From contig DASUWU010000046.1 in NCBI GenBank assembly GCA_036378315.1, forward strand, positions 1,253 through 65,252: a stretch of 64,000 nucleotides of DNA. Reading direction: 5' to 3'. The stretch's first letter is position 1. Every line of letters begins with the position of its first letter. Under the pieces are notes generated by a model. It worked only from the letters and a program-made list of their open reading frames with translations. It made no database searches and was not told the origin of the DNA. Source of the stretch: Streptosporangiaceae bacterium. GTDB lineage: Bacteria; Actinomycetota; Actinomycetes; Streptosporangiales; Streptosporangiaceae. The position numbers were made by a program, and so were the translations under genes. Shown one piece after another: positions 3,588-30,826 of this stretch.

Positions 3588-4763
<1,176 letters not shown>

Positions 4764-4976: not shown

Positions 4977-6116
4977 ATGCGCCGTGCCCATCCGATCGCG
5001 CTCGCCGGGGCGACCGCCGTGCTGATCTCGACCCTCACCGCCTGCGGCGACGACGCGGCCAAGGGCACGGGCGGCGCGAGCACGATCGCGGTCACCGCGA
5101 CGGACAGCTCCTGCGCGATCGCCAAGAAGAGCGTGGCCGCCGGAGCCGCGACGTTCAAGGTGACCAACAACGGGAGCCGCCCGACCGAGCTCGAGATCCT
5201 CAAGGCGGACGGCAAGGTCGTCTCCGAGCGGGAGAACATCGGGCCGGGAACCGCCGCCGAGCTGACCGTGCAGCTGGCCGCCGGGACGTACAAGGTGTTG
5301 TGCAGTCCGGGGATGACGGGCAAGGGCCCCAGCCAGGTCATCGTCGTCTCGGGGAGCAGCGGCGGCGGGCGCGCCGACCTGTCTCTGGAGCAGGCCGTCG
5401 CCGGCTATCGCGGCTACGTCAAGGACCAGGTCGACGACACCCTCGCCAAGACCAGGACGTTCGCCGCCGCCGTGAAGGCGGGCGACGTCGCGCGGGCCAA
5501 GAAGCTGTACGCGCCGTCGCGGGTCGGCTGGGAGCGCATCGAGCCGGTCGCCGAGTCGTTCGGCGACATCGATCCCAAGGTCGACCTGCGCGAGGCCGAC
5601 CTCGAGCAGGGCCAGACGTGGACCGGCTGGCACCGCCTGGAGAAGGCGCTGTGGAAGGCGGGGTCGGTCAAGGGCCAGCAGCAGTACGCCGGCCGGCTCG
5701 TCGCCGATCTCGAGGCGCTCCAGCAGCGGGTGGGCGGCGCGGAGATCACCCCCACGTCCATGAGCAACGGCGCCAAGGAGCTCCTCGACGAGGTGGCGAC
5801 CGGAAAGATCACCGGTGAGGAGGAGGCGTACTCCCACACCGACCTCGTCGACTTCGCTGCCAACGTCGACGGCGCCGAGAAGGTCTACCGGCTCCTCGAG
5901 CCGGTCGTCCGGCAGCGGGACGCCGCGCTCGCCGGCACCATCGACGACGAGTTCGCCAAGGTCAAGCGCCTGCTCGCCACGTACAAGGACGGCGCGGGCG
6001 ACGGCGGCTACGTCTCCTACGACACCGTCGGCGAGGCCAAGCGCAAGGAGCTGTCGGACGCGGTCAACGCGCTCGGCGAGCCGCTGTCCCGGCTGGCGGG
6101 CGTGGTGGCCAGGTGA
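4977..6116 (+). CDS. efeO: EfeO-like iron uptake lipoprotein (cupredoxin-like N-domain plus M75 domain)
   Basis: Lipobox LISTLTAC, cupredoxin-like GTYKVLCSPGMTGKG, and the C-terminal HTD..E imelysin-like region. It is translationally coupled to efeB. Confidence 0.85.
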   Translation: MRRAHPIALAGATAVLISTLTACGDDAAKGTGGASTIAVTATDSSCAIAKKSVAAGAATFKVTNNGSRPTELEILKADGKVVSERENIGPGTAAELTVQLAAGTYKVLCSPGMTGKGPSQVIVVSGSSGGGRADLSLEQAVAGYRGYVKDQVDDTLAKTRTFAAAVKAGDVARAKKLYAPSRVGWERIEPVAESFGDIDPKVDLREADLEQGQTWTGWHRLEKALWKAGSVKGQQQYAGRLVADLEALQQRVGGAEITPTSMSNGAKELLDEVATGKITGEEEAYSHTDLVDFAANVDGAEKVYRLLEPVVRQRDAALAGTIDDEFAKVKRLLATYKDGAGDGGYVSYDTVGEAKRKELSDAVNALGEPLSRLAGVVAR

Positions 6117-7471: not shown

Positions 7472-7570
7472 ACGGTCCACCTGCCGGCGGGAACGCGGCC
7501 TGTCAGGGGGCGTAGTCGACTACGGGTAAAGAACCCTGTCGACAGAACGGCGGCGAGGCGTCACTGTGGG

Positions 7571-8905: not shown

Positions 8906-8909
8906 ACCC

Positions 8910-9404
8910 ATGCGCTTTCGAGTCCACTCCCTGCCCAAGGCCGTGCGGGACGGGCTCGCGCTGGACCGTGGCGAACACGTCCTGGCCCATGCGGTGACCA
9001 GGGAGGGCGGGTACGTGGTGGCCACCGACCGCGCCCTGCACCTGCCCGCCTCCCCGGACGCCTCCCTCCGCCTTCCCTGGGAACGCGTCGAACAGGCCGC
9101 CTGGCAGAACGGGTGGCTGCACGTCCGCGAGAACGCCGGCGCCGCCGTCCACCATCTACGGCTCGCCGATCCAGGATCCATACCGGAAACCGTCCAGGAA
9201 CGCGTGACCGCCACGATCGTCGTCAACCAGCCGGCAACGCTCCCCGGCGGCGGGCGCGTCCGCATCGTCGGTCGCCGCCCGGCGGGCGGCGACGCCGTTC
9301 GCTGGACCTTCGTCTTCGACGCCGGCCTCGACCCGGACGATCCGGAGCTGCGCGCCCAGGCCGGCGAGCTCCTCGCCGCCCTCCGCCGCCAAACCGGCCT
9401 CTAG
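8910..9404 (+). CDS. Conserved hypothetical protein
   Basis: 164-aa ORF with typical codon bias, 4 nt after the preceding gene. No recognised motif. Confidence 0.5.
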   Translation: MRFRVHSLPKAVRDGLALDRGEHVLAHAVTREGGYVVATDRALHLPASPDASLRLPWERVEQAAWQNGWLHVRENAGAAVHHLRLADPGSIPETVQERVTATIVVNQPATLPGGGRVRIVGRRPAGGDAVRWTFVFDAGLDPDDPELRAQAGELLAALRRQTGL

Positions 9405-9506
9405 CACAAACCTGCCGTGATCAAGCAATGGCTCCCCGGGCGGAGAACCACCGCGTGATCACGGCAGGGGTCGATCAGGCCGGACCGGCGGGCGGCCCGG
9501 CGGTGG

Positions 9507-9797
9507 TCAGTTGGGCGAGGGCGTCGACTCGTTGGCGGAACGCCGCGAGCCGTCATCGTCGCCCGACCGGCGCAGCCCGGGGATCTTGTCCCCGACCGTC
9601 TCGTTGACCTTGCTGCGGGCGTTTCCGGCAAGCTCACCCGCCTGCGCGCGGATCAGCCCGGCGGTCTCCTGCACCGTCGGGTTCTCCGAGATCCAGCGGG
9701 ATGCGCGTTTGATCTGCTCGTAACGCTCCCGCCCGGCCTTCGTGCCCAGGACGTAGCCCAGGGCAGCTCCTGCGATGAACGTGGCGCGATACTTCAA
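9507..9797 (-). CDS. YtxH-like small membrane-anchored protein
   Basis: MKYRATFIAGAALGYVLGTKAGRERYEQIK: an N-terminal hydrophobic helix followed by GxKAGRERYE, typical of YtxH-type proteins. Confidence 0.65.
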   Translation of the reverse strand: MKYRATFIAGAALGYVLGTKAGRERYEQIKRASRWISENPTVQETAGLIRAQAGELAGNARSKVNETVGDKIPGLRRSGDDDGSRRSANESTPSPN

Positions 9798-19478: not shown

Positions 19479-20909
19479 CTAGAGCCCGATGGACTGGCGG
19501 AGGAGTGGGGCGTTGCGGCGCGCGACCGGGACCGTCTCGTGGGTGCGCGCGTCGGTGATGAGCAGCAGGGTTCCCTTGAAGCCCTGCTCCACTTCTCTGA
19601 TCCGGCCGAGGTTGACGAGGAACCGGCGGTGCACGCGCAGGAATCCCTTGTCCTGGAGTTGTTGCTCGAGGCGGTCGAGGCCGCGGGTGGCGGCCTGCAG
19701 GCGTCCTTGGTCGCTCGTCAGCCACACCTTGTTGTGGTCGGCCTCGGCGAACCGGATCTCGCGGGGATCGAGGAGCACCCACCGGTCGTCGCGCAGCGCG
19801 ATGACCCGGCTCGGCAGCGCGCGGGGCTGGGAGGAGGCGAACAGCGGGTCGCTCGACGACGCCCCGAAGGTGTCGGGAGATCCGAAGGCGGCCAGCACGC
19901 CGATCACCCTGGTACCGGTGAGCACCGGGCGTACCGAGACCCAGACGGGTGTGCCCAGGAACGGCACGAAGATCTGTGTCGATCCGGTCCAGTGCGGATC
20001 CTGCCTGGCGCGCTCGACGGCGCGCCGGGTCAGCCGCGGCAGGGTGGGCAGTTGCGGAGTCCACCGGTGGGCCGGCGCGTACGCCGGCGTATCAGCCGGC
20101 GTGCCCATCAGCGCGGCCGCCTCGCTGTTCGCGAGCACGACGTTTCCGGCCGGATCGATCGCGGCGAGCGGGGTCGCCGGCGCCAGGCGGGCGTCGGTGA
20201 GGGCGGCGGCCAGGAGCGTGCCGCTCTGGTGTGCGCGCTGCCGCAGCTTGGCCTCGGTGGCCGCGGCGACTTTGCGCAGCCACGGCAGGACGGCGTCCGA
20301 CAGCGGTGACTTCCAGCACGAGATGTTCAGGACGGCGAGCGGTTCCTGGGTGACGACGTCACGGACGGCGACGCCCGCGCACGCCCACGGATGGAAGCCG
20401 CGGCACCAGTGCTCGGGCCCCCTGACCATGACCGGGCGGTGGCTTTCCAGCGCCGTCCCCATGCCGTTCGTCCCGCTCGCCCATTCGGACCAGGTGAACC
20501 AGGGAGCGAGGTTCCGGTCCGCGGCGAGGTGCAGGATGCGCCGGCTTCCCCAGGTCGCCAGGATGCGCCCGTCGGAGTCGGCCACGGTGACCAGCCCGTC
20601 GAGGCCGTCGACCTCGCCGGCGGCGGAGGCTGCCAGGCCGCCGAGCTCGGCGAACACCACATCGTGGTCGATGGAGTGCGGGCTCATCTCGACCGCGGCC
20701 GGCGCCTGGTCCAACCCGGGGTCGACCTCGTATTCCTCCCGGCAGCGGTACCAGGACATGAGGATCTCGGGCCGGACCCCGCGGACGGCGTCCGCGCCCG
20801 CGGCGAAGCTCTCCCAGGCGGCGGTGGTCCGCCTCAGGTCGTCGTCGGCCAGTCCCGGTCCGCTCGTCGCGTGTCCGGTACCGCTCGTTCGGTCTCTCGC
20901 GCCGTTCAT
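19479..20909 (-). CDS. GAF-type sensor domain fused to a LytTR DNA-binding domain
   Basis: N-terminal ILMSWYRCREEYEVDPG plus a GAF-like core resembles AcoR-type sensory modules. The C-terminal IRFAEADHNKVWLTSDQGRLQAATRGLDRLEQQL..GFLRVHRRFLVNLGRI is a LytTR domain. Confidence 0.8.
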   Translation of the reverse strand: MNGARDRTSGTGHATSGPGLADDDLRRTTAAWESFAAGADAVRGVRPEILMSWYRCREEYEVDPGLDQAPAAVEMSPHSIDHDVVFAELGGLAASAAGEVDGLDGLVTVADSDGRILATWGSRRILHLAADRNLAPWFTWSEWASGTNGMGTALESHRPVMVRGPEHWCRGFHPWACAGVAVRDVVTQEPLAVLNISCWKSPLSDAVLPWLRKVAAATEAKLRQRAHQSGTLLAAALTDARLAPATPLAAIDPAGNVVLANSEAAALMGTPADTPAYAPAHRWTPQLPTLPRLTRRAVERARQDPHWTGSTQIFVPFLGTPVWVSVRPVLTGTRVIGVLAAFGSPDTFGASSSDPLFASSQPRALPSRVIALRDDRWVLLDPREIRFAEADHNKVWLTSDQGRLQAATRGLDRLEQQLQDKGFLRVHRRFLVNLGRIREVEQGFKGTLLLITDARTHETVPVARRNAPLLRQSIGL

Positions 20910-21079
20910 CCCATCCCCCTTTGCGGTCGGGGAAGAGCGATTCAGGATCGTGATCCGGACGCAACAACGACGTAATGAGCAACCCGCCGCACTGCTGACC
21001 CAGCACCCAGGCTAGCTGTCACGGGACGGCACACCAATAGTCAACCGCGACATGACTGTAGAAGTGGGGCGATGCGTAC

Positions 21080-22228
21080 ATGCGGGCCGTGGTGTACCTA
21101 AAGCCCTTCGAGGTGGGAGTTGAGGAAGTCCCCGACCCGCGCATCGAGCAGCCGAACGACGTGATCGTACGGATCACGTCCTCGTGCATCTGCGGGTCCG
21201 ACCTGCACATGTACGAGGGGCGAACATTGGCCGAGCCCGGCATCGTTTTCGGTCACGAGAATCTCGGGATCATCGAGGAGGTCGGCAGCGGCGTCACCCG
21301 CCTGGAGCAGGGTGACCGCGTCGTGATGCCGTTCAACGTGGCCTGCGGATTCTGCAAGAACTGCGTGGCCGGCCGTACCGGATTCTGCCTCACGGTCAAC
21401 CCGTCGGGCTTCGCCGGCGGCGCCTACGGCTATGTGGCCATGGGGCCGTATCCCGGCGGCCAGGCCGAATACCTGCGGGTGCCCTACGCCGACTTCAACT
21501 GCCTGCCGCTGCCGCCGGGCACCGAGCACGAGGCCGACTACGCGCTGCTCGCCGACATCTTCCCGACCGGGTACCACGGCTGCGAGCTCGCCGACGTCTC
21601 GCCAGGGGAGACGGTGGCCGTGTACGGCGCCGGGCCCGTCGGGCTGATGGCCGCGTACTCCGCGCAGCTCCGCGGGGCCTCCCGGGTCTTCGCCGTCGAT
21701 CGCGTGCCCGAGCGGCTCGCCAAGGCGCGGGAGATCGGCGCGATCCCCATCGACTTCTCCCAGGGCGACCCGGTCGAGCAGATCCGGGAGCAGACCGGCG
21801 GCGAAGGTACCGACAAAGGCATCGACGCGGTCGGGTACCAGGCGCTCACGCGGACCGCCGATCGTGAAGACCCGGCCACGGTCTTGAACCAGCTCGTACG
21901 GACCGTGCGCCCGACGGGCGCGCTCGGCGTCCCCGGCCTGTACGTGCCCGCCGACCCCGGCGGGGTCGACGAGCACGCCAGGAAGGGGATGTTGCGGGTC
22001 GCGATCGGCGCGCTGTTCGAGAAGGGACTGCGCGTGGGCACCGGGCAGGCGAACGTCAAGCGCTACAACCGGCAGCTGCGCGACATGATCACCACGGGCC
22101 GGGCCACGCCGAGCTTCGTGGTCTCGCACGAACTTCCGCTCGCCGACGCACCCGACGCCTACCGGAAATTCGACCAGCGCGTGGATGGCTACACCAAAGT
22201 CATCCTCAAACCCGACTCCATCCCATGA
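21080..22228 (+). CDS. fdhA: Zn-dependent, glutathione-independent formaldehyde dehydrogenase-like ADH
   Basis: ICGSDLHMYEGR, GHENLGIIEEVG, FNVACGFCKNCVAGRTGFCLTVNP..AGGAYGYV..GGQAEYLRVPYADFN and FPTGYHG closely track Pseudomonas FdhA as I remember it. Confidence 0.8.
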   Translation: MRAVVYLKPFEVGVEEVPDPRIEQPNDVIVRITSSCICGSDLHMYEGRTLAEPGIVFGHENLGIIEEVGSGVTRLEQGDRVVMPFNVACGFCKNCVAGRTGFCLTVNPSGFAGGAYGYVAMGPYPGGQAEYLRVPYADFNCLPLPPGTEHEADYALLADIFPTGYHGCELADVSPGETVAVYGAGPVGLMAAYSAQLRGASRVFAVDRVPERLAKAREIGAIPIDFSQGDPVEQIREQTGGEGTDKGIDAVGYQALTRTADREDPATVLNQLVRTVRPTGALGVPGLYVPADPGGVDEHARKGMLRVAIGALFEKGLRVGTGQANVKRYNRQLRDMITTGRATPSFVVSHELPLADAPDAYRKFDQRVDGYTKVILKPDSIP

Positions 22229-22346
22229 CCGTAGCCCCCAGGCGAGCATTGCGGAAATCCCTGTCCCGAGCTGCGCCATGCCGTCCAGGAACCATTCGTC
22301 CGCTTCGGCGGAGAAGCAATATCCGTTCTATTTAGGAGGTGACGTA

Positions 22347-22811
22347 ATGGCGACCCCCACCGACGATCGATCCCAACTGGTAAGCAAGTTGGGGCTGGAC
22401 CGGCAAAACGGGGCGGCGCTGGGCCGAGTGCTGGCCACGGGAAACATCGGTGAGGCCGAGGAGGGGCCCGACGGCCGCATGCGGGCCACCATCCGGATCA
22501 AGCCGGACGAGCTGGTCTACGACCCCTCGGTCCTCATCCTTCCCCATGGTGGTGACCTGGATATCGAGATCATCAACGATGACCTCAACACGCATTGCGC
22601 GCTCTTCCCGAGCAATGGCGACAGCCAGTTCATCTGGCTGGTGAACCATTCTCGGGGAACGGCGAGCATCAATCTCGACGGCCCGGGCTACTACTGGTAC
22701 AGCTCCCCCACAGGAAACGACGAAGGCCGGGGTCTGACCGGTGCCATCGTCGTGCTCGGGGAAGTTCCGCCGGAAGCCCGCCTCGACCGTCCGCAGCAGC
22801 CACGACCGTAG
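22347..22811 (+). CDS. Cupredoxin-like small protein associated with the PQQ dehydrogenase (no signal peptide)
   Basis: RBS aggaggt lies 7 nt before the ATG at 22347. The beta-rich sequence runs RATIRIKPDELVYDPSVLILPHGGDLDIEIINDDLNTHCALF...GYYWYSSPTGNDEGRGLTGAIVVLG. It ends 13 nt before the dehydrogenase gene. Confidence 0.75.
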   Translation: MATPTDDRSQLVSKLGLDRQNGAALGRVLATGNIGEAEEGPDGRMRATIRIKPDELVYDPSVLILPHGGDLDIEIINDDLNTHCALFPSNGDSQFIWLVNHSRGTASINLDGPGYYWYSSPTGNDEGRGLTGAIVVLGEVPPEARLDRPQQPRP

Positions 22812-22824
22812 AAAGGAGCAGGCG

Positions 22825-24513
22825 ATGACGGAATATGTGGACGCGGGACATGCCGTCGACTGGGGAACCCTGAGCGGGGTGCCCGGCAGCGCGCCGCCGG
22901 TGGCGCGGAATGTCGATTACCAGCGAATCCTCCAGGCCCGATCGACGGAGCCGCAGAACTGGCTCACCTATTTCGGTGCCTACGACGGGCAGCGCTACAG
23001 CCTGTTGGACCAGATCAACACCGACAACGTCCGGCGCCTCACCCCGGCGTGGGTGTTCCAGTGCGGGCCGGCCGGCCTGCAGGCGGGCGGCTCGACGTAC
23101 GCGTTCGAGGCGACCCCGATCGTGGTCGACGGCATCATGTACGTGACCGGATGGGACGGCTGGGTCTGGGCCCTCAACGCCGTGACCGGGCAGGAGCTCT
23201 GGCGCTACCACCACGCGACCCCGTTCGACACGTCGCTGTGCTGCGGCAACGTCAACCGCGGTGTGGCCGTGGCGCAGGGCAAGGTGTTCGTCGTGAGCCC
23301 CAACGCCCACGTCCTGGCGCTCGACGCCGAGACCGGCAAGTGCGTCTGGGACCGGACGAACGGCGACGTGCGGGCCGGGGAGAGCGCCACGCTCGCTCCG
23401 CTGGTCATCAAGGACAAGGTCATCGTCGGCAGCGCGGGCGGCGAGTTCGGCGTGCGGGGTCACCTCGACGCCTACGACCTGGAGACCGGGGAGCACGCCT
23501 GGCGCACCTACACCATCCCCAAGCCCGGGGAGCCGGGCTCGGAGACGTGGCCGGCGGACGGTGAGCAGTGGGCACGTGGTGGCGGGAATCCCTGGATCAC
23601 CCCCACCTACGACCCGGAGCTGAACCTCCTCTACACCGGGACCGGCAACCCGGCGCCCGACTTCGACGGCGACGTGCGCCCCGGCGACAACCTGTACACC
23701 GACTCGTGCATCGCGGTGAACCCCGACAACGGCGCGCTGGTGTGGCACTACCAGCACAACCCGCACGACCTGTGGGACTACGACAGCATCTCGGAGAACA
23801 TCCTCTTCGACCAGGGCGGTCGCAAGTTCCTCGGTCACTTCAACAAGAACGGCTACGGCTACGTGCTCGACCGCACCAACGGTGAGGTGGAGCGGGTGTT
23901 CCCGTTCGTCGACCGCATCGACTGGGGTGAGATCGACTCCAAGGGACAGATCACGGTCAAGAAGTACCCCGACAAGGAAGGGGAGCCGGTCCACTTCTAC
24001 CCGGGCCCGGGCGGCGGCAAGGAATGGACGCACGCGGCCTACAGCCCGCGGACCGAGCTCTTCTACGTCCCTGTGCAGGACGTCGGGGCGACGGCCACGC
24101 GGCGGCGCAGGGAGTTCAAGGAAGGTATCCCGTACTGGGGCGCCGGCGTCGCCGTGGACTCCGAGGGCATGGCGGGCTGCATCAGCGCCTTCGACCCGGC
24201 CACAGGTCGGGAGGTGTGGCGCTGGCGCAACGAGGTGCCGATGTGCGCGTCGGTGCTGGCCACGGCCGGCGACCTGGTGTTCGCCGGCGAACCCACCGGT
24301 GAGTTCAACGCGCTGAACGCCCGTACCGGTGAGCTGCTGTGGCAGTTCCAGTGCGGCAGCGGCCACCACAGCAGCCCGATGACCTACAGCGCCGGCGGGC
24401 GGCAGTACGTCGCCGTGCCGAGCGGCTGGGGCGGCTGGATCGAGGGGTTCGCGCCGGGCATGCTGGCCGGCACCCACGGAGCCGCGCTCTTCGCCTTCGC
24501 GCTGCCGGAATAG
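22825..24513 (+). CDS. PQQ-dependent dehydrogenase, methanol/ethanol family, lanthanide-type signature
   Basis: RBS gaaaggag before the ATG at 22825. Motifs seen: NWLTYFGAYDGQRYS, vicinal Cys TSLCCGNVNRG, GGGNPW, PHDLWDYDS, and propeller W-motifs. Confidence 0.92.
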   Translation: MTEYVDAGHAVDWGTLSGVPGSAPPVARNVDYQRILQARSTEPQNWLTYFGAYDGQRYSLLDQINTDNVRRLTPAWVFQCGPAGLQAGGSTYAFEATPIVVDGIMYVTGWDGWVWALNAVTGQELWRYHHATPFDTSLCCGNVNRGVAVAQGKVFVVSPNAHVLALDAETGKCVWDRTNGDVRAGESATLAPLVIKDKVIVGSAGGEFGVRGHLDAYDLETGEHAWRTYTIPKPGEPGSETWPADGEQWARGGGNPWITPTYDPELNLLYTGTGNPAPDFDGDVRPGDNLYTDSCIAVNPDNGALVWHYQHNPHDLWDYDSISENILFDQGGRKFLGHFNKNGYGYVLDRTNGEVERVFPFVDRIDWGEIDSKGQITVKKYPDKEGEPVHFYPGPGGGKEWTHAAYSPRTELFYVPVQDVGATATRRRREFKEGIPYWGAGVAVDSEGMAGCISAFDPATGREVWRWRNEVPMCASVLATAGDLVFAGEPTGEFNALNARTGELLWQFQCGSGHHSSPMTYSAGGRQYVAVPSGWGGWIEGFAPGMLAGTHGAALFAFALPE

Positions 24514-24553
24514 CGAGCGCAGCGGTCCCGCTCCGGCGGTCGCCGCCTCGTAA

Positions 24554-24589
24554 CACCATCTCGCTCTACATCACCATCTCGCTCTACAT
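24554..24589 (+). repeat. Perfect 2 x 18-bp tandem repeat just upstream of the pqqA RBS
   Basis: caccatctcgctctacat | caccatctcgctctacat, then c-ggggaggagg (RBS) and the pqqA ATG at 24609. Confidence 0.9.
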
Positions 24590-24608
24590 CGGGGAGGAGG
24601 TGACAAGC

Positions 24609-24707
24609 ATGGACATGGAGACCTGGGAGACCCCCGCTTGCGAAGAGATCAGAGTGTCCGCCGAGGCGAGCGCGTACATGAAGATCTGGGAGTACGGCGG
24701 CGACTAG
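24609..24707 (+). CDS. pqqA: PQQ precursor peptide
   Basis: 32 aa, MDMETWETPACEEIRVSAEASAYMKIWEYGGD. It fits the W-x-x-P...E-x-x-x-Y PqqA core (EASAY). The RBS is ggaggagg and pqqB-E follow. Confidence 0.85.
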   Translation: MDMETWETPACEEIRVSAEASAYMKIWEYGGD

Positions 24708-24854
24708 CCGGGCCGGGCGCCGGGCCGCGGCGGCATGGGGTCCGGCGCCCCCAGTCCGGCACGCGCGGGAAGGACGGGTCCCGGGCCCCGCGGCCCGGGC
24801 CGCGTCTCGGCGGGATCTCCGCGGGGTCCCGCCGGAGCCCGCGGCCCGGCAGCG

Positions 24855-24905
24855 GGCGTTCACAGGGCGGCGGGGTTCACAGGGCGGCGGGGTTCACAGG
24901 GCGGC
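24855..24905 (+). repeat. 3 x 17-bp tandem repeat in the pqqA-pqqB spacer
   Basis: ggcgttcacagggcggc | ggggttcacagggcggc | ggggttcacagggcggc. The repeat ends 20 nt before the pqqB GTG. Confidence 0.9.
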
Positions 24906-24924
24906 GGAAGGACGGCGGATCGGC

Positions 24925-25875
24925 GTGTGGGTGCGGGTGCTGGGATCGGCGGCCGGTGGCGGGTTCCCGCAGTGGAACTGCGCCTGCCCGTCGTGCGGTG
25001 CGGTGCGGGACGGGTCGCGGCCGGCTCGCCGGCGCACCCAGTCGTCGATCGCGGTGAGCGCCGACCGGCGGCTGTGGTTCCTGCTCAACGCCTCGCCCGA
25101 CATCCATGCCCAGATCGAGTCGTTCCCCGCCCTGCATCCGTCCGGCGGCAACCCAGGCGGCGGCCCTGTCGGCGGCCCTGTCGGCGGCCCAGGCGGCGGC
25201 CGGAAGGTCCCGCTGCGGGCGGTGGCGCTCACCGACGCCGAGCTCGACCACACGCTCGGGCTGCTGCTGCTCCGCGAGGGTGGCGGCGTCGAGCTGCACG
25301 CGACCGAGGCGGTGTACGACACACTCCGCGACGGGAGCTCGCTGCTCCGCACGCTCGAGGCGTACTGCCCTGTCGACTGGCATCCGGTCGTCCCGGACGC
25401 CGACGTGGAGCTGGGCGGCGGGCTGGCGTACCGGGCCTTCGACGTGCCCACGACGAAGCGGGCGCGGTTCGGCTCCGGCATCGGCGCCGGAAAGGGACGG
25501 GTCGTCGGCTACCGCCTCACCGGCGGGCGTGGCGGCCGGTCGCTGGTGTACCTGCCGGGCGTACAGGACCTCACGGCGGCGGTGCTCGACCAGCTGGACG
25601 GCTGCGCCTGCCTGCTGGTCGACGGCACCTGCTGGCGCGATGACGAGTTGGTCAGGCTGGGCCTGGCGGGCAAGACGGCGCGCGAGATGGGCCACGTGCC
25701 GATCGAGGGGCCGGGCGGCAGCCTCGAACGGCTGGCGCCGCTCCCCATCGAGCGCAAGATCTACATCCACATCAACAACACCAACCCGATCCTGCTCGAG
25801 GACTCGCCCGAGCGGCGCGTCCTGGAGCGGCACGGCATGGAAGTCGCCGTGGACGGGATGGAACTGCGGATCTGA
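24925..25875 (+). CDS. pqqB: PQQ biosynthesis protein B (metallo-beta-lactamase fold)
   Basis: VWVRVLGSAAGGGFPQWNCACPSC..., TDAELDHTLGLLLLRE, and IHINNTNPIL near the C-terminus. Confidence 0.92.
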   Translation: MWVRVLGSAAGGGFPQWNCACPSCGAVRDGSRPARRRTQSSIAVSADRRLWFLLNASPDIHAQIESFPALHPSGGNPGGGPVGGPVGGPGGGRKVPLRAVALTDAELDHTLGLLLLREGGGVELHATEAVYDTLRDGSSLLRTLEAYCPVDWHPVVPDADVELGGGLAYRAFDVPTTKRARFGSGIGAGKGRVVGYRLTGGRGGRSLVYLPGVQDLTAAVLDQLDGCACLLVDGTCWRDDELVRLGLAGKTAREMGHVPIEGPGGSLERLAPLPIERKIYIHINNTNPILLEDSPERRVLERHGMEVAVDGMELRI

Positions 25876-25884
25876 GGGCCATAG

Positions 25885-26577
25885 ATGACGCTGGCAATCG
25901 AGAACGAGAGCTTCCTCGCGGCGCTGCGCGCGCAGGGCCGCCGGTACCACGACCAGCACCCCTTCCACCGGAGGATGAACGAGGGCGCGCTGAGCCGCCG
26001 CCAGCTCCAGGGCTGGGCGGCCAATCGCTTCTACTACCAGGTGAATCTCCCGCGCAAGGACGCCGCCGTGGTGGCGAACTGCCCGGATCGCGAGGTACGC
26101 CGGCGCTGGATCCAGCGCATCCTCGACCACGACGGCACGGTGGACGGCGGGGGCGGGATCGAGGCGTGGCTGCGGCTGGGCCAGGCGCTGGGCCTGACCC
26201 GGGAGGAGCTGCTCGACGAGCGGCATGTCGTTCCGGGGGTACGGTTCGCCGTCGACGCCTACGTCACCTTCGCCCGTACCCGCCCGTGGGTCGAGGCGGT
26301 GGCCTCCTCGCTCACAGAGCTGTTCGCGCCGGATCTGATGGCCGAGCGGCTGGCCGCCTTCGAGCGGCACTACCCATGGATCGACCGTCAGGGATTGGCC
26401 TACTTCCGGGCCCGCCTGACGCAGGCGCCGCGCGACTCCCAGCACGCCATGCAGGTGGTCACCGAGCACTGCAGGACGGCCGACGAGCAGGCGGCAGCCG
26501 TCGCGGCGCTGTCGTTCAAGTGCGACGTGCTGTGGAGCATGCTGGACTCCATCGATCGCGCCTACCCGGACCGCTAG
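25885..26577 (+). CDS. pqqC: Pyrroloquinoline-quinone synthase
   Basis: [28 protein letters not shown] and the overall PqqC length (230 aa). Confidence 0.92.
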
Positions 26578-26579
26578 CC

Positions 26580-26921
26580 ATGCCGGCGCGGACCGTTGAC
26601 GATGCCGACCGCCCCCGCCTTGCCCGGCACGTCCGCCTGAGGTTCGACCGGGCGCGGGGCCGCCACGTGCTGCTGGCGCCCGAGGCGGTCTCGGTGCTGA
26701 ACGGCACGGGCGCCACCATCCTGGGTCTGTGCGACGGCCGGCGCACGGTCTCCGACATCGTGGCGGAGCTGCGCGCCGGCTACGACCGTGTGGACGGCGC
26801 CGAGGTACGGGACTTCATCGCCGGCCTTGTCACCAGGCGATGTGTCGAGGTCGGCGACGGGCCGGTAGCCGACGGACGGGTCGGCGACGGACGGGAGGCG
26901 GGGGATGGACGGACCGGATAG
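26580..26921 (+). CDS. pqqD: PQQ biosynthesis peptide chaperone
   Basis: From the ATG at 26580: RPRLARHVRLRFDRARGRHVLLAPEAVSVLNGTGATILGLCDGRRTVSDIVAEL. It overlaps the pqqE start. Confidence 0.88.
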   Translation: MPARTVDDADRPRLARHVRLRFDRARGRHVLLAPEAVSVLNGTGATILGLCDGRRTVSDIVAELRAGYDRVDGAEVRDFIAGLVTRRCVEVGDGPVADGRVGDGREAGDGRTG

Positions 26922-28041
26922 CCCGTTCGGCATGCTGGCCGAGCTCACCTATGCCTGCCCGCTGCACTGCGCGTACTGCTCCAACCCGCTCAACCTCGCC
27001 GACTACCGCGACGAGCTGACGACGGGGGAGTGGCTGCGGGTGATCGCCGAGGCCGCTGAGCTGGGGGTGCTGCAGCTGCACCTGTCGGGCGGCGAGCCGC
27101 TCCAGCGCCGCGACGTCGTCGAGATCGTCCGCGGCGCCGCCGGGCTCGGCCTGTACACGAACCTCATCACGAGCGCCATCGGCTTCTCCGCTCGCCGTGC
27201 CGAGCAGCTGCGCGCCGCCGGTCTCGACCACGTACAGATCAGCGTTCAGGCCGACGAGGCCGCCTTGTCCGACCGCCTGGCCGGCATGCCGTCGTTCGAC
27301 CGCAAGGTGGCGGCCGCCCGGCTGACGAAGAAGCTGGGCTGGCCGCTGACCCTCAACGTGGTCCTCCACCGGCAGAACATCGACCGGATCGGTCGCGTCC
27401 TCGAGCTCGCCGAGGAGCTGGACGCCGACCGCGTCGAGCTGGCCAACACGCAGTACTACGGCTGGGCCCTGCGCAACCGGGACGGGCTGCTGCCGAGCCG
27501 GGCCCAGCTCGACCGCGCCGAGACAGTGGTGCGTGCGGCTCGGGAGCGGCTGAACGGACGGATGCAGATCATCTACGTGGTCCCCGACTACTACAGCCGG
27601 TATCCCAAGGCCTGCATGGACGGCTGGGGACGGCGGCAGCTCACGGTGACGCCGAACGGCGACGTGCTGCCCTGCCCGACCGCGCATACGGTGCCGCTGC
27701 CGCGCGCCAGCGTGCGCGCGCACTCGCTGGCCTGGATCTGGCAGCGGTCACCCGCCTTCCAGCGTTTCCGCGGTACGGACTGGATGCCCGACCCCTGCCG
27801 CGGCTGCGACCGTCGCGAGCTCGACTTCGGCGGCTGCCGGTGCCAGGCGTTCCAGCTCACCGGGGACGCGGCCCGTACCGATCCGGTCTGCCATCTCTCG
27901 CCGGATCACGGAGTCGTCGCGGCGGCGGTGCGGGCCGCCAACGCGCCGGCCGCCCCGGACGCGCCGACCGGGGCGGCCGGGGACGCGCTCATCCCGCGAC
28001 CGCATCCGCGCGACGTGACCCGGCAAGGCCCACTTCAGTGA
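26905..28041 (+). CDS. pqqE: Radical SAM PQQ biosynthesis enzyme
   Basis: CPLHCAYCSN (CxxxCxxC) plus the C-terminal SPASM cysteines PCRGCDRRELDFGGCRCQA. Confidence 0.93.
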   Translation: MDGPDSPFGMLAELTYACPLHCAYCSNPLNLADYRDELTTGEWLRVIAEAAELGVLQLHLSGGEPLQRRDVVEIVRGAAGLGLYTNLITSAIGFSARRAEQLRAAGLDHVQISVQADEAALSDRLAGMPSFDRKVAAARLTKKLGWPLTLNVVLHRQNIDRIGRVLELAEELDADRVELANTQYYGWALRNRDGLLPSRAQLDRAETVVRAARERLNGRMQIIYVVPDYYSRYPKACMDGWGRRQLTVTPNGDVLPCPTAHTVPLPRASVRAHSLAWIWQRSPAFQRFRGTDWMPDPCRGCDRRELDFGGCRCQAFQLTGDAARTDPVCHLSPDHGVVAAAVRAANAPAAPDAPTGAAGDALIPRPHPRDVTRQGPLQ

Positions 28042-28094
28042 CGCCTTCAGTGACGCCTTCTGTGACGACCCTTTTGTGACGACTTCTGTGACGG
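28033..28094 (+). repeat. Five phased copies of a cttc(a/t)GTGACG(c/a) 12-mer spanning the pqqE stop to the mntP start
   Basis: cttcagtgacgc, cttcagtgacgc, cttctgtgacga, cc, cttttgtgacga, cttctgtgacgg. The pqqE TGA lies inside copy 1. The mntP start follows at 28098/28101. Confidence 0.85.
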
Positions 28095-28097: not shown

Positions 28098-28637
28098 TTG
28101 ATGATTGAGGTACTGGCTCTCGGCTTGTTTCTCAGCCTGGACAACTTCAGGTCGTCGATCGCGATCGGCACGATTCCCTTCAGATTCCGTCGCGCCATGC
28201 AGATCGCCGTCGTGTTCGGCGTCTGGGACGGCGTCGCGCCGCTGGCGGGAGGCGTGCTCGGGCACTACGTCGGCAAGATGATGGGCCCGATCGCCGAGTA
28301 CGTCGGGCCCGCGTTGCTGGGCATCTACGGCCTGTATCTTCTGTTCGGGGCGTTCAGGAAGCCGGCGCCGGATGAGATCGATCAACCATGGGTCACGCTG
28401 TTCGGCATGCCTCTTACCCTGAGCGTGGACAACCTGCTCGCCGGCGCGGGACTGGGGTTGCTCGGTTTCTCTCCCTTCATCTCGGCTTTGATATTCGGAA
28501 CCACGACCGCGGTGATGTCGCTCGTCGGGTTGTGCATCGGAAGGTTCGCCGCGCGTCTGATCCCCATGCGCCCCGACCTGGTGGGTGGAGTCTCGCTCGT
28601 CGCCGCGGCCATCGTCCTGCCAATCGTGTTCTCCTGA
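28098..28637 (+). CDS. mntP: MntP-family manganese efflux pump (DUF204)
   Basis: LALGLFLSLDNFRSSIAIG and LTLSVDNLLAGAGLG: the duplicated DUF204 motifs. About 6 TM helices. Start is TTG 28098 or ATG 28101. Confidence 0.8.
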   Translation: MMIEVLALGLFLSLDNFRSSIAIGTIPFRFRRAMQIAVVFGVWDGVAPLAGGVLGHYVGKMMGPIAEYVGPALLGIYGLYLLFGAFRKPAPDEIDQPWVTLFGMPLTLSVDNLLAGAGLGLLGFSPFISALIFGTTTAVMSLVGLCIGRFAARLIPMRPDLVGGVSLVAAAIVLPIVFS

Positions 28638-28710: not shown

Positions 28711-29238
28711 TCATGCGTGGTGCCGGCACCCGCGTGGGTCGAGGCGGAGCCTGCCCCAGACCACCTTGCGGGACGTGTGGTCCTGGACGGCCGTGGACTC
28801 CGTGCCGTCCGTGGGGTACCAGCCCCAGCCGTCGCAGAGGGTCTCGACGAGTAAGAGGCCGCGGCCGCCTTCGGCGTCGATGCCGGGAGTCTGCGGCACC
28901 GGCGGGTCGCCGCTCCGGTCCCCGACCTCGATCAGCAGGTGCGACCGTGCGTCCGAGGACAGGCGCAGCCGGACCTGCCCGAGCGCGGCCATGTCGAGGG
29001 AGCAGCGTGCCGCCGGGCAGCGGTCGTGCCGGCGCCGCTCGTCTTCGGCGAGCAGTACGGTGGCGTTCGCGGCATTCGTCACCAATTCGGACACGACGAG
29101 CTTCACCCGGTAGACGAAAGTCTCGTCCCGGCCGAGCCGCCAGTAGCGGAGCAGTTCTTCGGTGTGGCGCCGCGCCCGGTACGCGGCATTGGGCATCGCC
29201 GCCAGGGGAAGTTCATCGTGCAGGGTCCACGGTGTCAT
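28711..29238 (-). CDS. HATPase_c-type ATP-binding protein (SpoIIAB/anti-sigma-like)
   Basis: VVSELVTNAANA ... EVGDRSGDPP ... GGRGLLLVETLCDGWGW: the N, G1 and G2 boxes of GHKL kinases found in AbaA/WhiJ-type loci. Confidence 0.8.
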   Translation of the reverse strand: MTPWTLHDELPLAAMPNAAYRARRHTEELLRYWRLGRDETFVYRVKLVVSELVTNAANATVLLAEDERRRHDRCPAARCSLDMAALGQVRLRLSSDARSHLLIEVGDRSGDPPVPQTPGIDAEGGRGLLLVETLCDGWGWYPTDGTESTAVQDHTSRKVVWGRLRLDPRGCRHHA

Positions 29239-29256
29239 CTATGTCTTCATCCGGAA

Positions 29257-29610
29257 TCAGGCGCGGAAGGACAGGCGCTCGGCGATGAGCCGGGTCGCGG
29301 TCGGGAGGTCTGAAGTCCGGCAAATGCGCTCGTTTTCCCGCTCCCACTCGAACCACGACTCGGAATGCGGGACGTGGGTGGTCCGCGTGGTCACCCGGAC
29401 CGCCTCCTCGGGGCCTTCCCCGGTTGGACGGAGCACGTAGAGGCGTGGCTGTTCGACGCCGTGCGCGCCGGGCCGCTCGTACCGCGTGGCCAGGCCGATG
29501 AGGTGGAGCGCCGATTGGAGTTCTCCCAAAAGGCGGGTCGCGACGTAAAGCGACAGGCGGTCCTCCGCGGGCAGCGCGTTGCCGAGATAAGTCAGATCAG
29601 GGGCGGGCAT
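29257..29610 (-). CDS. Hypothetical protein (117 aa)
   Basis: ATG at 29610, preceded by AAGGAG 5 nt upstream. The sequence starts MPAPDLTYLGNALPAEDRLSLYVATRLLGEL. No recognised domain. Confidence 0.55.
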   Translation of the reverse strand: MPAPDLTYLGNALPAEDRLSLYVATRLLGELQSALHLIGLATRYERPGAHGVEQPRLYVLRPTGEGPEEAVRVTTRTTHVPHSESWFEWERENERICRTSDLPTATRLIAERLSFRA

Positions 29611-29867
29611 GTCGACTCCTTGTCTCGCTCGCGTTCGAGTTGAACGGTCAGGTCGGCCACATCCCGCTCGATGAGGGTGGGGGACAGGCCGGAGGACGCC
29701 TCGACGCGGGTCAGGTGCCGGCGCCTGGTGGCGCAGATCAGGCTTCCCGCCCGGCTCGTCCAGAACGACCATTCAGGCCAGGCGCGCCGCAGTGGCTCCA
29801 AATCCGGTATGGCCGGTGTCTTGGTATGCATCGCTCCAGGAAGCCTCTCTCGGACTTTCGCCACCAT
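29592..29867 (-). CDS. Hypothetical small protein (79-91 aa)
   Basis: GAGGAG lies adjacent to the ATG at 29867; the alternative start is 29831. The motif WPEWSFWTSRAGSLICATRR...TLIERDVADLTVQLERE resembles small proteins I recall next to XRE regulators in actinomycetes. Confidence 0.5.
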   Translation of the reverse strand: MVAKVRERLPGAMHTKTPAIPDLEPLRRAWPEWSFWTSRAGSLICATRRRHLTRVEASSGLSPTLIERDVADLTVQLERERDKESTCPPLI

Positions 29868-30004
29868 GACTCCTCACTTGACGGCGGTCAACTTGCGGCT
29901 TGGATGAAACTGGCTTCTTGTCTACCCTGATCGGCGTACGCTCTGTATACGGAATCGGCCGCACTGGTAACAGTGAGTGACGGAAGATCATCCGTGAGGA
30001 GGCG

Positions 30005-30826
30005 GTGAGGCCCATGGCGCCAGTGCCCCACGAACGCCGGACCTGGCTCCACTACTGGGCGGGGGAGTTAGTCGCCTGGCGGGAGTTCCGCGGGTTGACG
30101 CAGTGCCAGCTGGCGTCCGCCATCAATTACGCGGAATCGACGGTGGCCATGATCGAAACGGCCAAGCGCAAGCCCAAGCCGGACTTCGTGCAGCGCTGCG
30201 ACGTCGCTCTCCAGACCGGCGGGGCGTTGGAGCGCCTCAAGGACGAACTCGTCGACCGCGAGCTCGTGCCCGACTGGCTCGACCGCTGGCGTCAGATCGA
30301 AGAGCAGGCCAGCGAGTTGAACTGGTTCGAGATATTCGTAATTCCTGGACTGCTCCAGACGCCGGAGTATGCTCGGGCCATCCTGGAAGCAGGACATACC
30401 AAACCCTTCGACCTTGAAGCGCAGGTGAAGGCTCGGCTCGAACGACAACTGATTCTTACCCGCGAAGACCCGCCGATGTTCGTGGCCGTGGTGGATGAGA
30501 ACGCCATTCGGCGGATGATCGGCGGCGAAAAGGTTATGTACGACCAGCTCACGCATTTGCTTGAGCTGGCAGAGCAGCCGCATATTCGGCTGCAGATCAT
30601 CCCACATGATGTGGGCGCGTACGCCGGATTGACCGGTCCGTTCGTGGTCGCCACCCTTGACGGCGATGAGGTCGTCTACCAGGAAGCGGCCCTGCGCGGG
30701 CACATCATCGAGGGTCATGAGGACGTCGCTGCCTTCAAACGCATGTGGGCGGCGTTGCGAGCCGATGCGCTTCCGCGGAAGGCATCGCTCGACCTGATTT
30801 CGGAAGTGACCAAAGAATGTACATGA
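30005..30826 (+). CDS. XRE-family HTH regulator with DUF5753-like C-domain (WhiJ/Scr1-like)
   Basis: LVAWREFRGLTQCQLASAINYAESTVAMIETAKRKP is the HTH. The C-terminal region contains PGLLQTPEYARAIL. The coding sequence is visibly less GC-rich than its neighbours. Confidence 0.85.
   Translation: MRPMAPVPHERRTWLHYWAGELVAWREFRGLTQCQLASAINYAESTVAMIETAKRKPKPDFVQRCDVALQTGGALERLKDELVDRELVPDWLDRWRQIEEQASELNWFEIFVIPGLLQTPEYARAILEAGHTKPFDLEAQVKARLERQLILTREDPPMFVAVVDENAIRRMIGGEKVMYDQLTHLLELAEQPHIRLQIIPHDVGAYAGLTGPFVVATLDGDEVVYQEAALRGHIIEGHEDVAAFKRMWAALRADALPRKASLDLISEVTKECT

Follow-up and report, generated by a model that had tools for sequence, protein, structure and literature searches.

An actinobacterial quinoprotein operon of the MSMEG_3726/3727 type with a predicted cytoplasmic enzyme and a putatively copper-less cupredoxin-fold partner

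The window analysed here, a stretch of 64,000 nucleotides from a Streptosporangiaceae bacterium, carries an operon that we interpret as the minority, FdhA-type form of the actinobacterial 'MSMEG_3726/3727' quinoprotein system. In this interpretation, to which we give about an even chance, a lanthanide-type enzyme would work in the cytoplasm with a copper-less cupredoxin subunit, and O2, giving H2O2, is our best guess for the oxidant. A sequence-only reading had proposed nine genes forming a self-contained alcohol-oxidation block with no recognisable electron-acceptor gene, an interpretation which is partly supported by our analysis. The features, in window coordinates, are the following.

19479-20909, minus strand: GAF-LytTR regulator (PF04397 LytTR, 63.7 bits; PF01590 GAF, 31.5 bits)
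20910-21079, no strand: putative divergent promoter region, with the motif CAGGCTA[AG]C at 21008-21016
21080-22228, plus strand: FdhA-like Zn-dehydrogenase (ADH_N, ADH_zinc_N; TIGR02819, 356 bits, under the cutoff of 637)
22347-22811, plus strand: MSMEG_3727-family cupredoxin-fold protein, 154 aa (TIGR04339, 282 bits; PF23509, 271 bits)
22825-24513, plus strand: PQQ methanol/ethanol-family dehydrogenase, 562 aa (TIGR03075, 628 bits, cutoff 480)
24609-24707, plus strand: pqqA precursor peptide, 32 aa (direct reading of the sequence, preceded by GGAGGAGG)
24925-25875, plus strand: pqqB (TIGR02108, 375 bits, cutoff 245)
25885-26577, plus strand: pqqC (TIGR02111, 336 bits, cutoff 240)
26580-26921, plus strand: pqqD (TIGR03859, 75.9 bits, cutoff 46)
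26905-28041, plus strand: pqqE, radical-SAM/SPASM enzyme (TIGR02109, 526 bits, cutoff 381)
28101-28637, plus strand: MntP-like (LysE-superfamily metal efflux family) membrane protein (PF02659, 87.9 bits)

Gene calls and profile matches recovered all nine genes proposed for 19479-28041, to which the MntP-like gene should probably be added, and the block is self-contained in that it encodes its own PQQ synthesis genes, pqqABCDE. The description of the genes from the cupredoxin-like one onwards as tightly spaced or overlapping is right for cupredoxin and dehydrogenase (13 nt), pqqB and pqqC (9 nt), pqqC and pqqD (2 nt, the pqqD ATG lying 3 nt downstream of the pqqC stop) and pqqD and pqqE (17-nt overlap), but not for dehydrogenase and pqqA (95 nt) or pqqA and pqqB (217 nt). 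The pqqA peptide carries E-x3-Y (...E-A-S-A-Y...); it gave no match in the HMM search and was found by tblastn in two related loci, L001 and L003. The true start of the dehydrogenase is the ATG at 22825. A longer pqqB frame from 24735 was rejected as the wrong frame, and an ORF start at 22185 for the cupredoxin-like protein was discarded as over-extended, relatives sharing the ATG at 22347 behind AGGAGG. The reading frames of the cluster are all intact and the coding signal is strong, with third-position GC of 0.89-0.93 in eight genes (above 0.85 for GAF-LytTR, FdhA-like, PQQ dehydrogenase, pqqB, pqqC and pqqE, and 0.85 for MntP-like) in a listing whose filter left out P3727, pqqA and pqqD. 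Eleven further actinobacterial genomes show the same gene order, and the pair of a cupredoxin gene followed by the dehydrogenase gene is kept in 80 of the 80 related actinobacterial loci examined, so that the arrangement is not due to chance.

The system has been catalogued before: the small protein is the 'MSMEG_3727 family PQQ-associated protein' (TIGR04339/PF23509), whose archetype is Mycobacterium smegmatis MSMEG_3721-3727. That cassette was noted in 2011, and its descriptions come solely from comparative genomics (PMC3023750, PMC6529628); a katG paralogue, MSMEG_3729, accompanies it (PMC9325904). Our literature search found no functional study of the system, but the family is named and the cassette described. 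Window and cassette share the families of PQQ dehydrogenase and small partner, the pqq genes inside and an actinobacterial host. Judged from its gene numbers and katG neighbour, the cassette fits the majority KatG type, whereas in the window that position is taken by an FdhA-like gene and the regulator is divergent. Growth of M. smegmatis on ethanol depends on mycofactocin and does not require the cassette (PMC6529628), a dispensability that counts against our best explanation. The family matched 1958 proteins at E <= 0.001, and the system is carried by about 400 of 185,579 species genomes, every listed locus belonging to Actinomycetota.

Comparison of the related loci revealed two architectures, a division not reported before. 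The haem enzyme KatG is present in the cluster of 44 of the 55 fully flanked actinobacterial loci (about 80%) and lies directly upstream in most related loci, while the FdhA-like type, the minority architecture of the window (type A), accounts for 9 of the 55, the two genes being nearly mutually exclusive at one operon position. The presence of KatG in most related clusters bears directly on the question of re-oxidation. KatG was absent from the cluster of the window, from its 11 type-A relatives and from the whole 64-kb window. The linkage could also have another cause, such as shared regulation or peroxidase use. The best solved relatives of the FdhA-like protein are glutathione-independent formaldehyde dehydrogenases (4jlw, 1kol, E 1e-93), followed by formaldehyde dismutase (2dph); in 12 loci its gene precedes the cupredoxin gene on the same strand at a distance of 14-145 nt, which suggests that it is the first gene of the operon in type A. 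A GAF-LytTR homologue occurs in 51 of the 55 loci, divergent in the architecture of the window and co-directional in the majority one, and alignment of the intergenic region of 12 type-A loci showed the CAGGCTA[AG]C block to be conserved upstream. The MntP-like protein has four TM-like segments, and its gene adjoins the cluster in 29 of the 55 loci and still stands beside the dehydrogenase in loci without pqq genes (L005, L008, L034), making it a probable further member of the system.

The dehydrogenase is strongly supported, from its residues, as an eight-bladed PQQ alcohol dehydrogenase with complete catalytic and lanthanide-coordinating positions. It has the CC ring, GGE, GNP and HDLWDYD motifs, as do 74 of 74 actinobacterial orthologues, and the lanthanide Asp and lanthanide-type active site are likewise kept in all of them. 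The closest solved structure is PedH of Pseudomonas putida (6zcv/6zcw, E 1e-116). Both enzymes have the vicinal Cys pair, Glu and Asn as metal ligands, the catalytic Asp and, within W-D-[YF]-D, the additional lanthanide Asp. PedH, however, is periplasmic, with a signal peptide and a c-type cytochrome (cytochrome c550) as partner, while the window enzyme has neither signal peptide nor cytochrome gene. The XoxF/MxaF systems (xoxF-xoxG-xoxJ; mxaFJGI) share enzyme superfamily and cofactor with the window, and XoxF also the lanthanide-type active site, but their cytochrome cL (XoxG/MxaG), XoxJ/MxaJ binding protein, small subunit and export signal are all missing here. In sequence the dehydrogenase is nearer to ethanol dehydrogenases than to XoxF, and its substrate could be methanol, ethanol or another alcohol. 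The reported absence of a cytochrome c and of an MxaJ/XoxJ-like gene was confirmed: no CxxCH occurs in any real protein translation of the block, neither block nor 80 related loci contain an MxaJ/XoxJ-like gene, and no cytochrome c is conserved in the same 80 loci.

The fold proposed for the small protein was borne out by an AF2 model (pLDDT 79.6, about 90 in the core), for which Foldseek returned auracyanin, CuA domains and Cupredoxin_1 with probability 1.0, amicyanin-loop chimeras being also among the matches. In the alignment the window protein has H83-S120-D125-L130 in the ligand columns, where exported relatives have H-C-H-M. H-S-D-L was counted in 123 sequences and H-C-H-M in 122, plus three odd sequences, and within the actinobacterial branch H-S-D-L occupies these positions in 123 of 123. 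The alignment thus strongly supports the exchange of three of the four copper ligands in the actinobacterial lineage (Cys to Ser120, His to Asp125, Met to Leu130). Conservation of the partner matches that of the enzyme, at about 75% identity between genera (73-91% for the cluster proteins), a level higher than expected of a passive relic and suggestive of a further function outside our best explanation.

The exported relatives (L081-L160) belong to Acidobacteriota, Armatimonadota, Verrucomicrobiota and other phyla, and consist of two orthologous genes in the same order as in the window, the copper-type gene always directly upstream of the dehydrogenase orthologue. Identity to the actinobacterial proteins is 57-74% for the dehydrogenase and 38-53% for the partner, and the C-terminal tail EA[RK]LDRPxQPRP is common to both kinds of partner. 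Both exported proteins are lipoproteins, and a complete type-1 copper site, His-Cys-His-Met, is present in their partner, whereas the window pair has neither feature. Nothing else is conserved around the exported pair: genes for KatG, an FdhA-like protein or a regulator are not linked to it in these loci, an MntP-like gene is nearby in one (L108) and pqq genes occur in two only. These comparisons strongly support the descent of enzyme and partner from an exported lipoprotein pair of diderm phyla; lipoproteins with canonical copper ligands on one side, and an actinobacterial branch without signal peptides and with H-S-D-L on the other, are described here for the first time. Being a canonical type-1 blue-copper protein, the diderm partner presumably serves as electron acceptor there. 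The claim that no acceptor gene is recognisable holds for cytochrome c, MxaJ and XoxJ but is an oversimplification, the cupredoxin-like gene being the direct homologue of that blue-copper partner of the same enzyme. The ancestral pair follows the same logic as methylamine dehydrogenase and amicyanin, where a cupredoxin encoded beside a quinoprotein is its dedicated acceptor, although methylamine dehydrogenase has a TTQ cofactor, another enzyme fold and a periplasmic location, and amicyanin binds copper while the window partner has lost the ligands.

As proposed earlier, the soluble proteins of the block have neither a hydrophobic N-terminus nor a twin-arginine signal. A hydrophobic N-terminal segment was found in 0 of 79 actinobacterial dehydrogenases, against 61 of 63 from other phyla, and in 0 of 122 actinobacterial cupredoxins against 118 of 122 in the exported group, where 86 lipobox-like motifs were counted. 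The N-termini read directly agree with these counts, both signal peptides having been lost precisely at the lipoprotein cleavage site. This double loss in the actinobacterial lineage makes it most probable that dehydrogenase and partner work in the cytoplasm. A missing signal peptide is, in itself, no strict proof of cytoplasmic location.

Under our best explanation, the operon makes its own PQQ and the 154-aa cupredoxin-fold partner, two steps that are strongly supported. The partner would still dock on the dehydrogenase as a subunit but would no longer act as a blue-copper carrier, and the oxidant would not be encoded as a classical carrier, none having replaced it. Most probably, O2 would re-oxidise the reduced cofactor, either by direct reaction or by way of a remodelled His/carboxylate site on the partner, yielding aldehyde and H2O2. 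KatG, found in about 80% of loci, and, in the window, the FdhA-like NAD-dependent aldehyde/formaldehyde dehydrogenase would be accessory alternatives matching the toxic H2O2 and aldehyde, the GAF-LytTR protein would control the operon, and the MntP-like transporter would handle metal needed or displaced by the enzyme. Since neither the window nor its 11 type-A relatives have KatG, the H2O2 argument is borrowed from the sister architecture. Characterised PQQ dehydrogenases react slowly with O2, which counts against O2 as oxidant.

An unlikely alternative is that the cupredoxin-like protein is still a dedicated acceptor, with type-2 copper, iron or manganese at a site rebuilt from His83, His101, Asp78, Asp79, Asp125 and Glu126. 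An alignment of 12 actinobacterial sequences shows all six residues without variation, and the full C84-H101-D78-D79-E126 pattern occurs in 112 of the 123 H-S-D-L sequences (position 101 is also Q, N or S), but not every family member has Cys84 and His101 (P0124 and P0128 lack them). The strand order of the model would place the residues in loops at the former copper-ligand end, a clustering that depends on topology, and we know of no cupredoxin with such a site for electron transfer. The conservation of the partner, the linked MntP-family transporter and the KatG directly upstream in most loci would suit this reading, although type-A loci, the window included, are without KatG. Cupredoxins are electron donors to bacterial di-haem peroxidases; electrons might here pass to O2, or to KatG compound I/II as a peroxidase sink, and the system would be an alcohol-driven peroxide or oxygen reductase.

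It is improbable that the protein is instead a lanthanide or calcium chaperone or insertase with no redox role, the MntP-like transporter supplying or balancing the metal. Hard oxygen donors (Ser, Asp, Glu, Asn) now abound at the former copper site, a cytoplasmic enzyme with the invariant lanthanide Asp would need a supply route, and the MntP-like gene remains beside the dehydrogenase in loci whose pqq genes are elsewhere. However, the exported homologues share the docking tail and are clearly blue-copper carriers, so a complete change of function would be needed; inspection of the sequence by eye showed no likeness to lanmodulin-type EF hands, and MntP-family proteins are annotated as exporters.

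Export without an N-terminal signal, with enzyme and partner feeding a respiratory chain outside the membrane as classical quinoproteins do, is distinctly improbable. To our knowledge every characterised bacterial quinoprotein alcohol dehydrogenase is extracytoplasmic, and all 74 orthologues retain the vicinal Cys-Cys pair that forms a disulfide in the periplasmic enzymes. Against this stand the exact loss of both signal peptides, the lack of a Tat motif or TM segment in enzyme and partner, the loss of the copper site that an extracytoplasmic carrier would use, and linked accessory enzymes (KatG, FdhA-like, PqqB-E) of cytoplasmic types. Finally, a decaying or silent remnant of a horizontally acquired periplasmic system, with no current function, is barely credible: the dispensability in M. 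smegmatis (PMC6529628) and the lost canonical acceptor site would agree with it, but not the intact frames and third-position GC, the retention by about 400 species, the identity between genera, the invariant catalytic residues, or replaced ligands that are themselves invariant in 123 of 123 sequences, which indicates selection and not drift.

Returning to our best explanation, if O2 is the oxidant, aldehyde and H2O2 would be cleared by dedicated enzymes, in the manner of yeast peroxisomal alcohol oxidase and catalase, an analogy only, since that oxidase is an unrelated flavoenzyme without homology. The importance of the finding lies in a mechanism within a known family, that of an actinobacterial quinoprotein with a putatively copper-less partner, and how such an enzyme hands over its electrons within the cell is now a testable question.

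Gene calls and family HMMs confirmed the presence of the nine genes that the sequence-only reading had placed in this interval of the window, whose G+C content is about 71%. The elements of the block, together with the membrane gene that follows it, are:

19479-20909, minus strand: GAF + LytTR regulator, the first of the nine genes in the flagged interval
170 nt: divergent spacer separating the regulator from the next gene (FdhA-like)
21080-22228, plus strand: FdhA-like Zn-dehydrogenase
start ATG at 22347, plus strand: small protein (TIGR04339/PF23509), 154 aa, its ORF trimmed to the conserved start with a ribosome-binding site
start ATG at 22825, plus strand: PQQ dehydrogenase of the methanol/ethanol family (TIGR03075), 562 aa, its ORF trimmed in the same way to a conserved start with a ribosome-binding site
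plus strand: pqqA, 32 aa, with E-A-S-A-Y, read by inspection and preceded by GGAGGAGG
24925-25875, plus strand: pqqB
start ATG at 26580, plus strand: pqqD
28101-28637, plus strand: MntP-like membrane gene, directly 3' of pqqE

The small protein ends 13 nt 5' of the dehydrogenase, and pqqABCDE lie 3' of the latter. The tight spacing or overlap previously described for these genes holds in parts of the block; it does not hold around pqqA, where the gaps are 95 and 217 nt. With equivalog HMMs, PqqB scored 375 bits (cutoff 245), PqqC 336 (240), PqqD 76 (46) and PqqE 526 (381). No match for pqqA was obtained in the HMM search; its product has the Glu-x3-Tyr feature of PqqA peptides, a strong ribosome-binding site lies upstream, and tblastn found matches in two of the related loci (L001 and L003). 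The frame at 24735-25643 was considered for pqqB and rejected, being an arginine-rich wrong frame that matches no family. The MntP-like gene is probably part of the operon unit. Rfam (E <= 0.1) and promoter/terminator scans of the window between 18 and 30 kb gave no usable result.

Three tandem repeats lie between the genes: 2 x 18 nt (CACCATCTCGCTCTACAT) at 24554-24590, just 5' of pqqA; 3.5 x 17 nt at 24848-24907, between pqqA and pqqB; and about 5 x 12 nt (CTTCTGTGACGC) at 28033-28093, running over the stop codon of pqqE and through the spacer that precedes the MntP-like gene. On sequence grounds these arrays look like local expansions, because the spacer from the dehydrogenase to pqqB is longer in the window (412 nt) than in relatives (153-344 nt). 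LytTR regulators typically bind direct repeats.

The dehydrogenase scored 628.3 bits against TIGR03075 (cutoff 480) and 293.7 bits against PF01011, and the closest solved structure is that of PedH, a lanthanide-dependent ethanol dehydrogenase (E 1e-116). Its segments SLCCGNVNRG, GGEFG, GTGNPAP and HDLWDYD align with PedH and supply the vicinal Cys-Cys, the Glu/Asn metal ligands and the catalytic Asp, all of which are conserved in 74 of 74 actinobacterial orthologues. The extra lanthanide Asp, two residues past the catalytic one (W-D-Y-D), is likewise found in the window enzyme and in every one of these 74 orthologues, and the enzyme is predicted to belong to the lanthanide-dependent subgroup (XoxF/PedH/ExaF type).

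In the classical periplasmic systems (MxaFI/XoxF/ExaA/PedH) the enzyme has a signal peptide and is extracytoplasmic, and it is co-encoded with a c-type cytochrome (MxaG/XoxG/cytochrome c550) and a periplasmic binding protein of MxaJ/XoxJ type. The block of the window has neither signal peptide, cytochrome nor binding protein of these kinds, as had already been noticed from the sequence, and its enzyme is most probably cytoplasmic; the wider comparison bears this out. A search for an N-terminal signal peptide in the window dehydrogenase found none, and the soluble proteins encoded in the block are all without a hydrophobic N-terminal stretch or a twin-arginine signal. A hydrophobic segment ahead of the mature dehydrogenase was seen in 0 of 79 actinobacterial sequences versus 61 of 63 relatives from other phyla. 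The CxxCH motif is absent from every protein of the block, and clustering of the ORFs of 80 related loci revealed no conserved cytochrome c family. As for MxaJ/XoxJ, every gene of the block was assigned to another family, and no such family occurs among the conserved neighbours. Export by Tat "hitch-hiking" was rejected, the twin-arginine signal being absent from both the dehydrogenase and the small protein.

The small protein scored 281.8 bits against TIGR04339 (cutoff 75) and 270.6 bits against PF23509 (cutoff 27). Its AlphaFold2 model (mean pLDDT 79.6, about 90 over residues 34-136) shows two helices and, after them, a beta-sandwich. With this model Foldseek retrieved only cupredoxins from the PDB (E about 1e-6, probability 1.0), among them auracyanin (6kol), the CuA domains of N2O reductase and cytochrome oxidase, Cupredoxin_1 (4hci), CupA and amicyanin chimeras, so that the label "cupredoxin-like" was well chosen. 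However, while the fold is shared with type-1 blue copper proteins (auracyanin, azurin, amicyanin), their His...Cys-x(n)-His-x(n)-Met ligands are not: the former ligand positions are occupied by His83, Ser120, Asp125 and Leu130. His83, His101, Asp78/79, Asp125 and Glu126 are invariant in an alignment of 12 actinobacterial sequences; judging from the strand topology of the model, they would lie at the former copper end, where they could form a new metal site. The 'LPSNG' segment after His83 is conserved.

Distant relatives proved scarce in an exhaustive profile-free search with the small protein (164 among 1.8 billion representatives). The full-length ones have a lipoprotein-type N-terminal signal peptide and the type-1 ligands His...Cys-x4-His-x4-Met. 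Scanning metagenomes with these copper-type sequences gave 80 loci, assigned by source names to Armatimonadota, Acidobacteriota and Verrucomicrobiota. In every locus that includes the DNA 3' of it, the copper-type gene directly precedes an orthologue of the dehydrogenase (57-74% identity) that also begins with a lipoprotein signal. Conserved neighbours of this pair, such as a possible downstream acceptor, were looked for in these loci, and nothing was found beyond the pair itself.

To describe the split between actinobacterial and exported forms, we scored 248 members of the small-protein family and the dehydrogenases adjoining them. The ligand columns read H-S-D-L in 123 actinobacterial sequences versus H-C-H-M in 122 exported relatives, with other combinations in three sequences. 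The N-terminus is hydrophobic in none of 122 actinobacterial proteins versus 118 of 122 exported ones, and a lipobox-like motif occurs in 0 versus 86, respectively. Both groups have the C-terminal tail [ED]A[KR]LDRPxQPRP in common, and the actinobacterial proteins start where the mature lipoproteins do. Two individual relatives, P0175 and P0191, are intermediate forms: the lipoprotein signal peptide is present and Met is retained, the Cys ligand is already replaced (Ser or Asp), and the first loop His is Gln in P0175 and retained in P0191. Because of these forms, the copper site may have been lost more than once, or ahead of the loss of export.

The small-protein family is defined in NCBIfam and Pfam, under the name 'MSMEG_3727 family PQQ-associated protein'; the system is catalogued but uncharacterised. 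The earlier interpretation is supported in part, and what it had described is a member of a named family rather than a new discovery. In a large protein collection the family matched 1958 proteins at E <= 0.001, and roughly 400 of the 185,579 species genomes contained a match; carriers include Streptomyces, Pseudonocardia, Amycolatopsis, Actinomadura and M. smegmatis. Among the loci listed, 80 of 80 belong to Actinomycetota, and the closest are from Streptosporangiaceae MAGs and Actinomadura (86-88%), which makes this group the probable source of the window. In our literature search no biochemical or genetic work on the system came up, nor any paper joining PQQ enzymes to this cupredoxin family. 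The clade may correspond to the 'PQQ-ADH type 8' named in a 2026 preprint. The only PQQ alcohol dehydrogenase of M. smegmatis, MSMEG_3726, is encoded in one cassette with the genes for PQQ synthesis (Haft 2011, PMC3023750). Krishnamoorthy et al. (2019), who cite MSMEG_3721-3727, found that growth on ethanol depends on mycofactocin, so that the PQQ cassette cannot substitute under those conditions (PMC6529628).

Two architectures emerged when the window proteins were mapped onto the 80 loci and all ORFs of those loci were clustered. The small protein is followed by the dehydrogenase in 80 of 80 loci, and pqqA-E are usually next. In the architecture of the window (type A), the FdhA-like gene lies directly 5' of the small protein on the same strand, with a gap of 14-145 nt (12 loci), and the regulator is divergent; this is a minority arrangement, present in 9 of the 55 fully flanked loci. 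The majority type has a co-directional regulator and then, at the position of the FdhA-like gene, the catalase-peroxidase KatG (about 750 aa; for example 7448-9727 in locus L048). KatG occurs in 44 of the 55, lies 3' of pqqE in four loci, and is almost mutually exclusive with the FdhA-like gene; none was found in the 64-kb window. The cassette of M. smegmatis matches the majority type, since MSMEG_3729 is one of the three katG genes of that species (PMC9325904).

Concerning the accessory genes, TIGR02819 is the best-matching family for the FdhA-like protein, which among solved structures is nearest to 4jlw and 1kol (E 1e-93). However, the score of 355.8 bits is under the equivalog cutoff of 637, and for this reason we call the protein FdhA-like and treat its substrate as putative. 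The MntP-like protein scored 87.9 bits against PF02659 (gathering cutoff 24.4) and has four TM-like segments, which places it by sequence in the MntP manganese efflux family, with the transported ion as a prediction. An MntP-family gene adjoins the cluster, on either strand, in 29 of 55 fully flanked loci, and it stays beside the dehydrogenase in L005, L008 and L034, three loci whose pqq genes lie elsewhere. Among the exported copper-type loci a similar gene was seen only in L108, about 5 kb away. This linkage to the actinobacterial loci, and near-absence from the copper-type ones, points to a role in metal handling that goes with the cytoplasmic form.

A search for a redox partner elsewhere in the 64-kb window gave no cluster-linked cytochrome, ferredoxin or flavoprotein; the rest of the window contains dnaG, a sigma-70 gene, an EfeO/EfeB-like pair, transporters and regulators. 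The dnaG primase gene and a full-length sigma-70 of principal-sigma type (regions 1.1-4) lie at 1615-4763 on the plus strand, a core chromosomal neighbourhood, so that no obvious mobile element carries the PQQ cluster. At 4977-7471 (plus strand) an EfeO-like protein with Cupredoxin_1 and imelysin domains is followed by an EfeB-like Dyp-type peroxidase; this pair, probably an EfeUOB-type iron uptake module, is 15 kb from the PQQ cluster and unlinked to it in related loci. The G+C content falls to about 0.67 at 28711-30826, where a HATPase_c_2 protein and an unassigned 171-aa ORF (both minus strand) and an HTH_31 + DUF5753 regulator (plus strand) form a regulator cluster unrelated to the PQQ operon. 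At 45278-48566 on the plus strand, an ECF-type sigma factor precedes two large proteins, of 324 and 533 aa, that match no Pfam family.

The operon encodes PQQ synthesis, an intact quinoprotein dehydrogenase of lanthanide type and a cupredoxin-fold partner. This partner is the orthologue of a blue-copper protein but is devoid of three of the four ligands; both proteins are without an export signal, and no cytochrome is linked to them. We propose that the ancestral pair was a periplasmic quinoprotein with its dedicated cupredoxin acceptor, as in methylamine dehydrogenase with amicyanin, and that it was relocated to the cytoplasm in the actinobacterial lineage. The partner would still dock on the dehydrogenase, given the shared C-terminal tail and the conservation of 'LPSNG', but could not serve as a type-1 copper carrier. 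NAD+ and F420 were rejected as direct acceptors on thermodynamic grounds, the PQQ couple being far more positive than either. Reportedly, a 'NAD-dependent, PQQ-containing methanol dehydrogenase in a multienzyme complex' was described in 1984 from Nocardia sp. 239. Given that the couple is too positive for these cofactors, and that the lost copper site has not been made up for by a carrier gene, O2 would be the most plausible oxidant of the reduced enzyme. Alcohol and O2 would then give aldehyde and H2O2, two toxic products that would match the two alternative genes of the operon: KatG would remove H2O2 in the majority of lineages, and the FdhA-like enzyme would remove the aldehyde in the window. 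This reaction, with removal of its products by KatG or the FdhA-like enzyme, is a tentative proposal that rests on synteny, and the window architecture is one without KatG.

The two main rival readings are that the former copper end was rebuilt as a redox metal site, or that the partner is a metal chaperone; both arise because the invariant residues there could form a metal site. In a further-reaching reading, the system could be a cytoplasmic lanthanide/PQQ alcohol dehydrogenase whose acceptor, once a blue-copper protein, was rebuilt as a non-blue His/carboxylate metal subunit coupling alcohol oxidation to O2/H2O2 reduction. Such a PQQ 'alcohol oxidase/peroxidase' module, with one built-in detoxifier (mostly KatG, here the FdhA-like enzyme) and metal supply of the MntP family, seems to us improbable in its entirety. 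Export of the dehydrogenase and partner by a signal-less route is also unlikely, because the loss of both signal peptides was exact, and the partner no longer has the copper site that an extracytoplasmic carrier requires. That the cluster is a dead relic is hard to reconcile with its retention by about 400 species, with 73-91% identity between genera and with the invariance of the very residues that replaced the copper ligands.

To our knowledge, all characterised bacterial PQQ alcohol/methanol dehydrogenases work outside the cytoplasmic membrane and pass electrons to a c-type cytochrome or, in membrane-bound types, to quinone; nor do we know of any demonstration of lanthanide use in the phylum or the cell compartment of this system. 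If the cytoplasmic reading is true, the enzyme would be the first bacterial quinoprotein dehydrogenase to be placed in the cytoplasm. Throughout the loci examined it is without export signal or cytochrome, and the copper site of the ancestral copper carrier has been dismantled. Identifying the oxidant would show how, or whether, PQQ chemistry operates in a Gram-positive cytoplasm, would extend lanthanide biology to a new phylum and cell compartment, and would explain a widespread soil gene cluster whose present annotation goes no further than 'PQQ system protein'. The comparison of exported and cytoplasmic forms sharpens the puzzle and, by supplying concrete residues for mutation, makes the mechanism testable.
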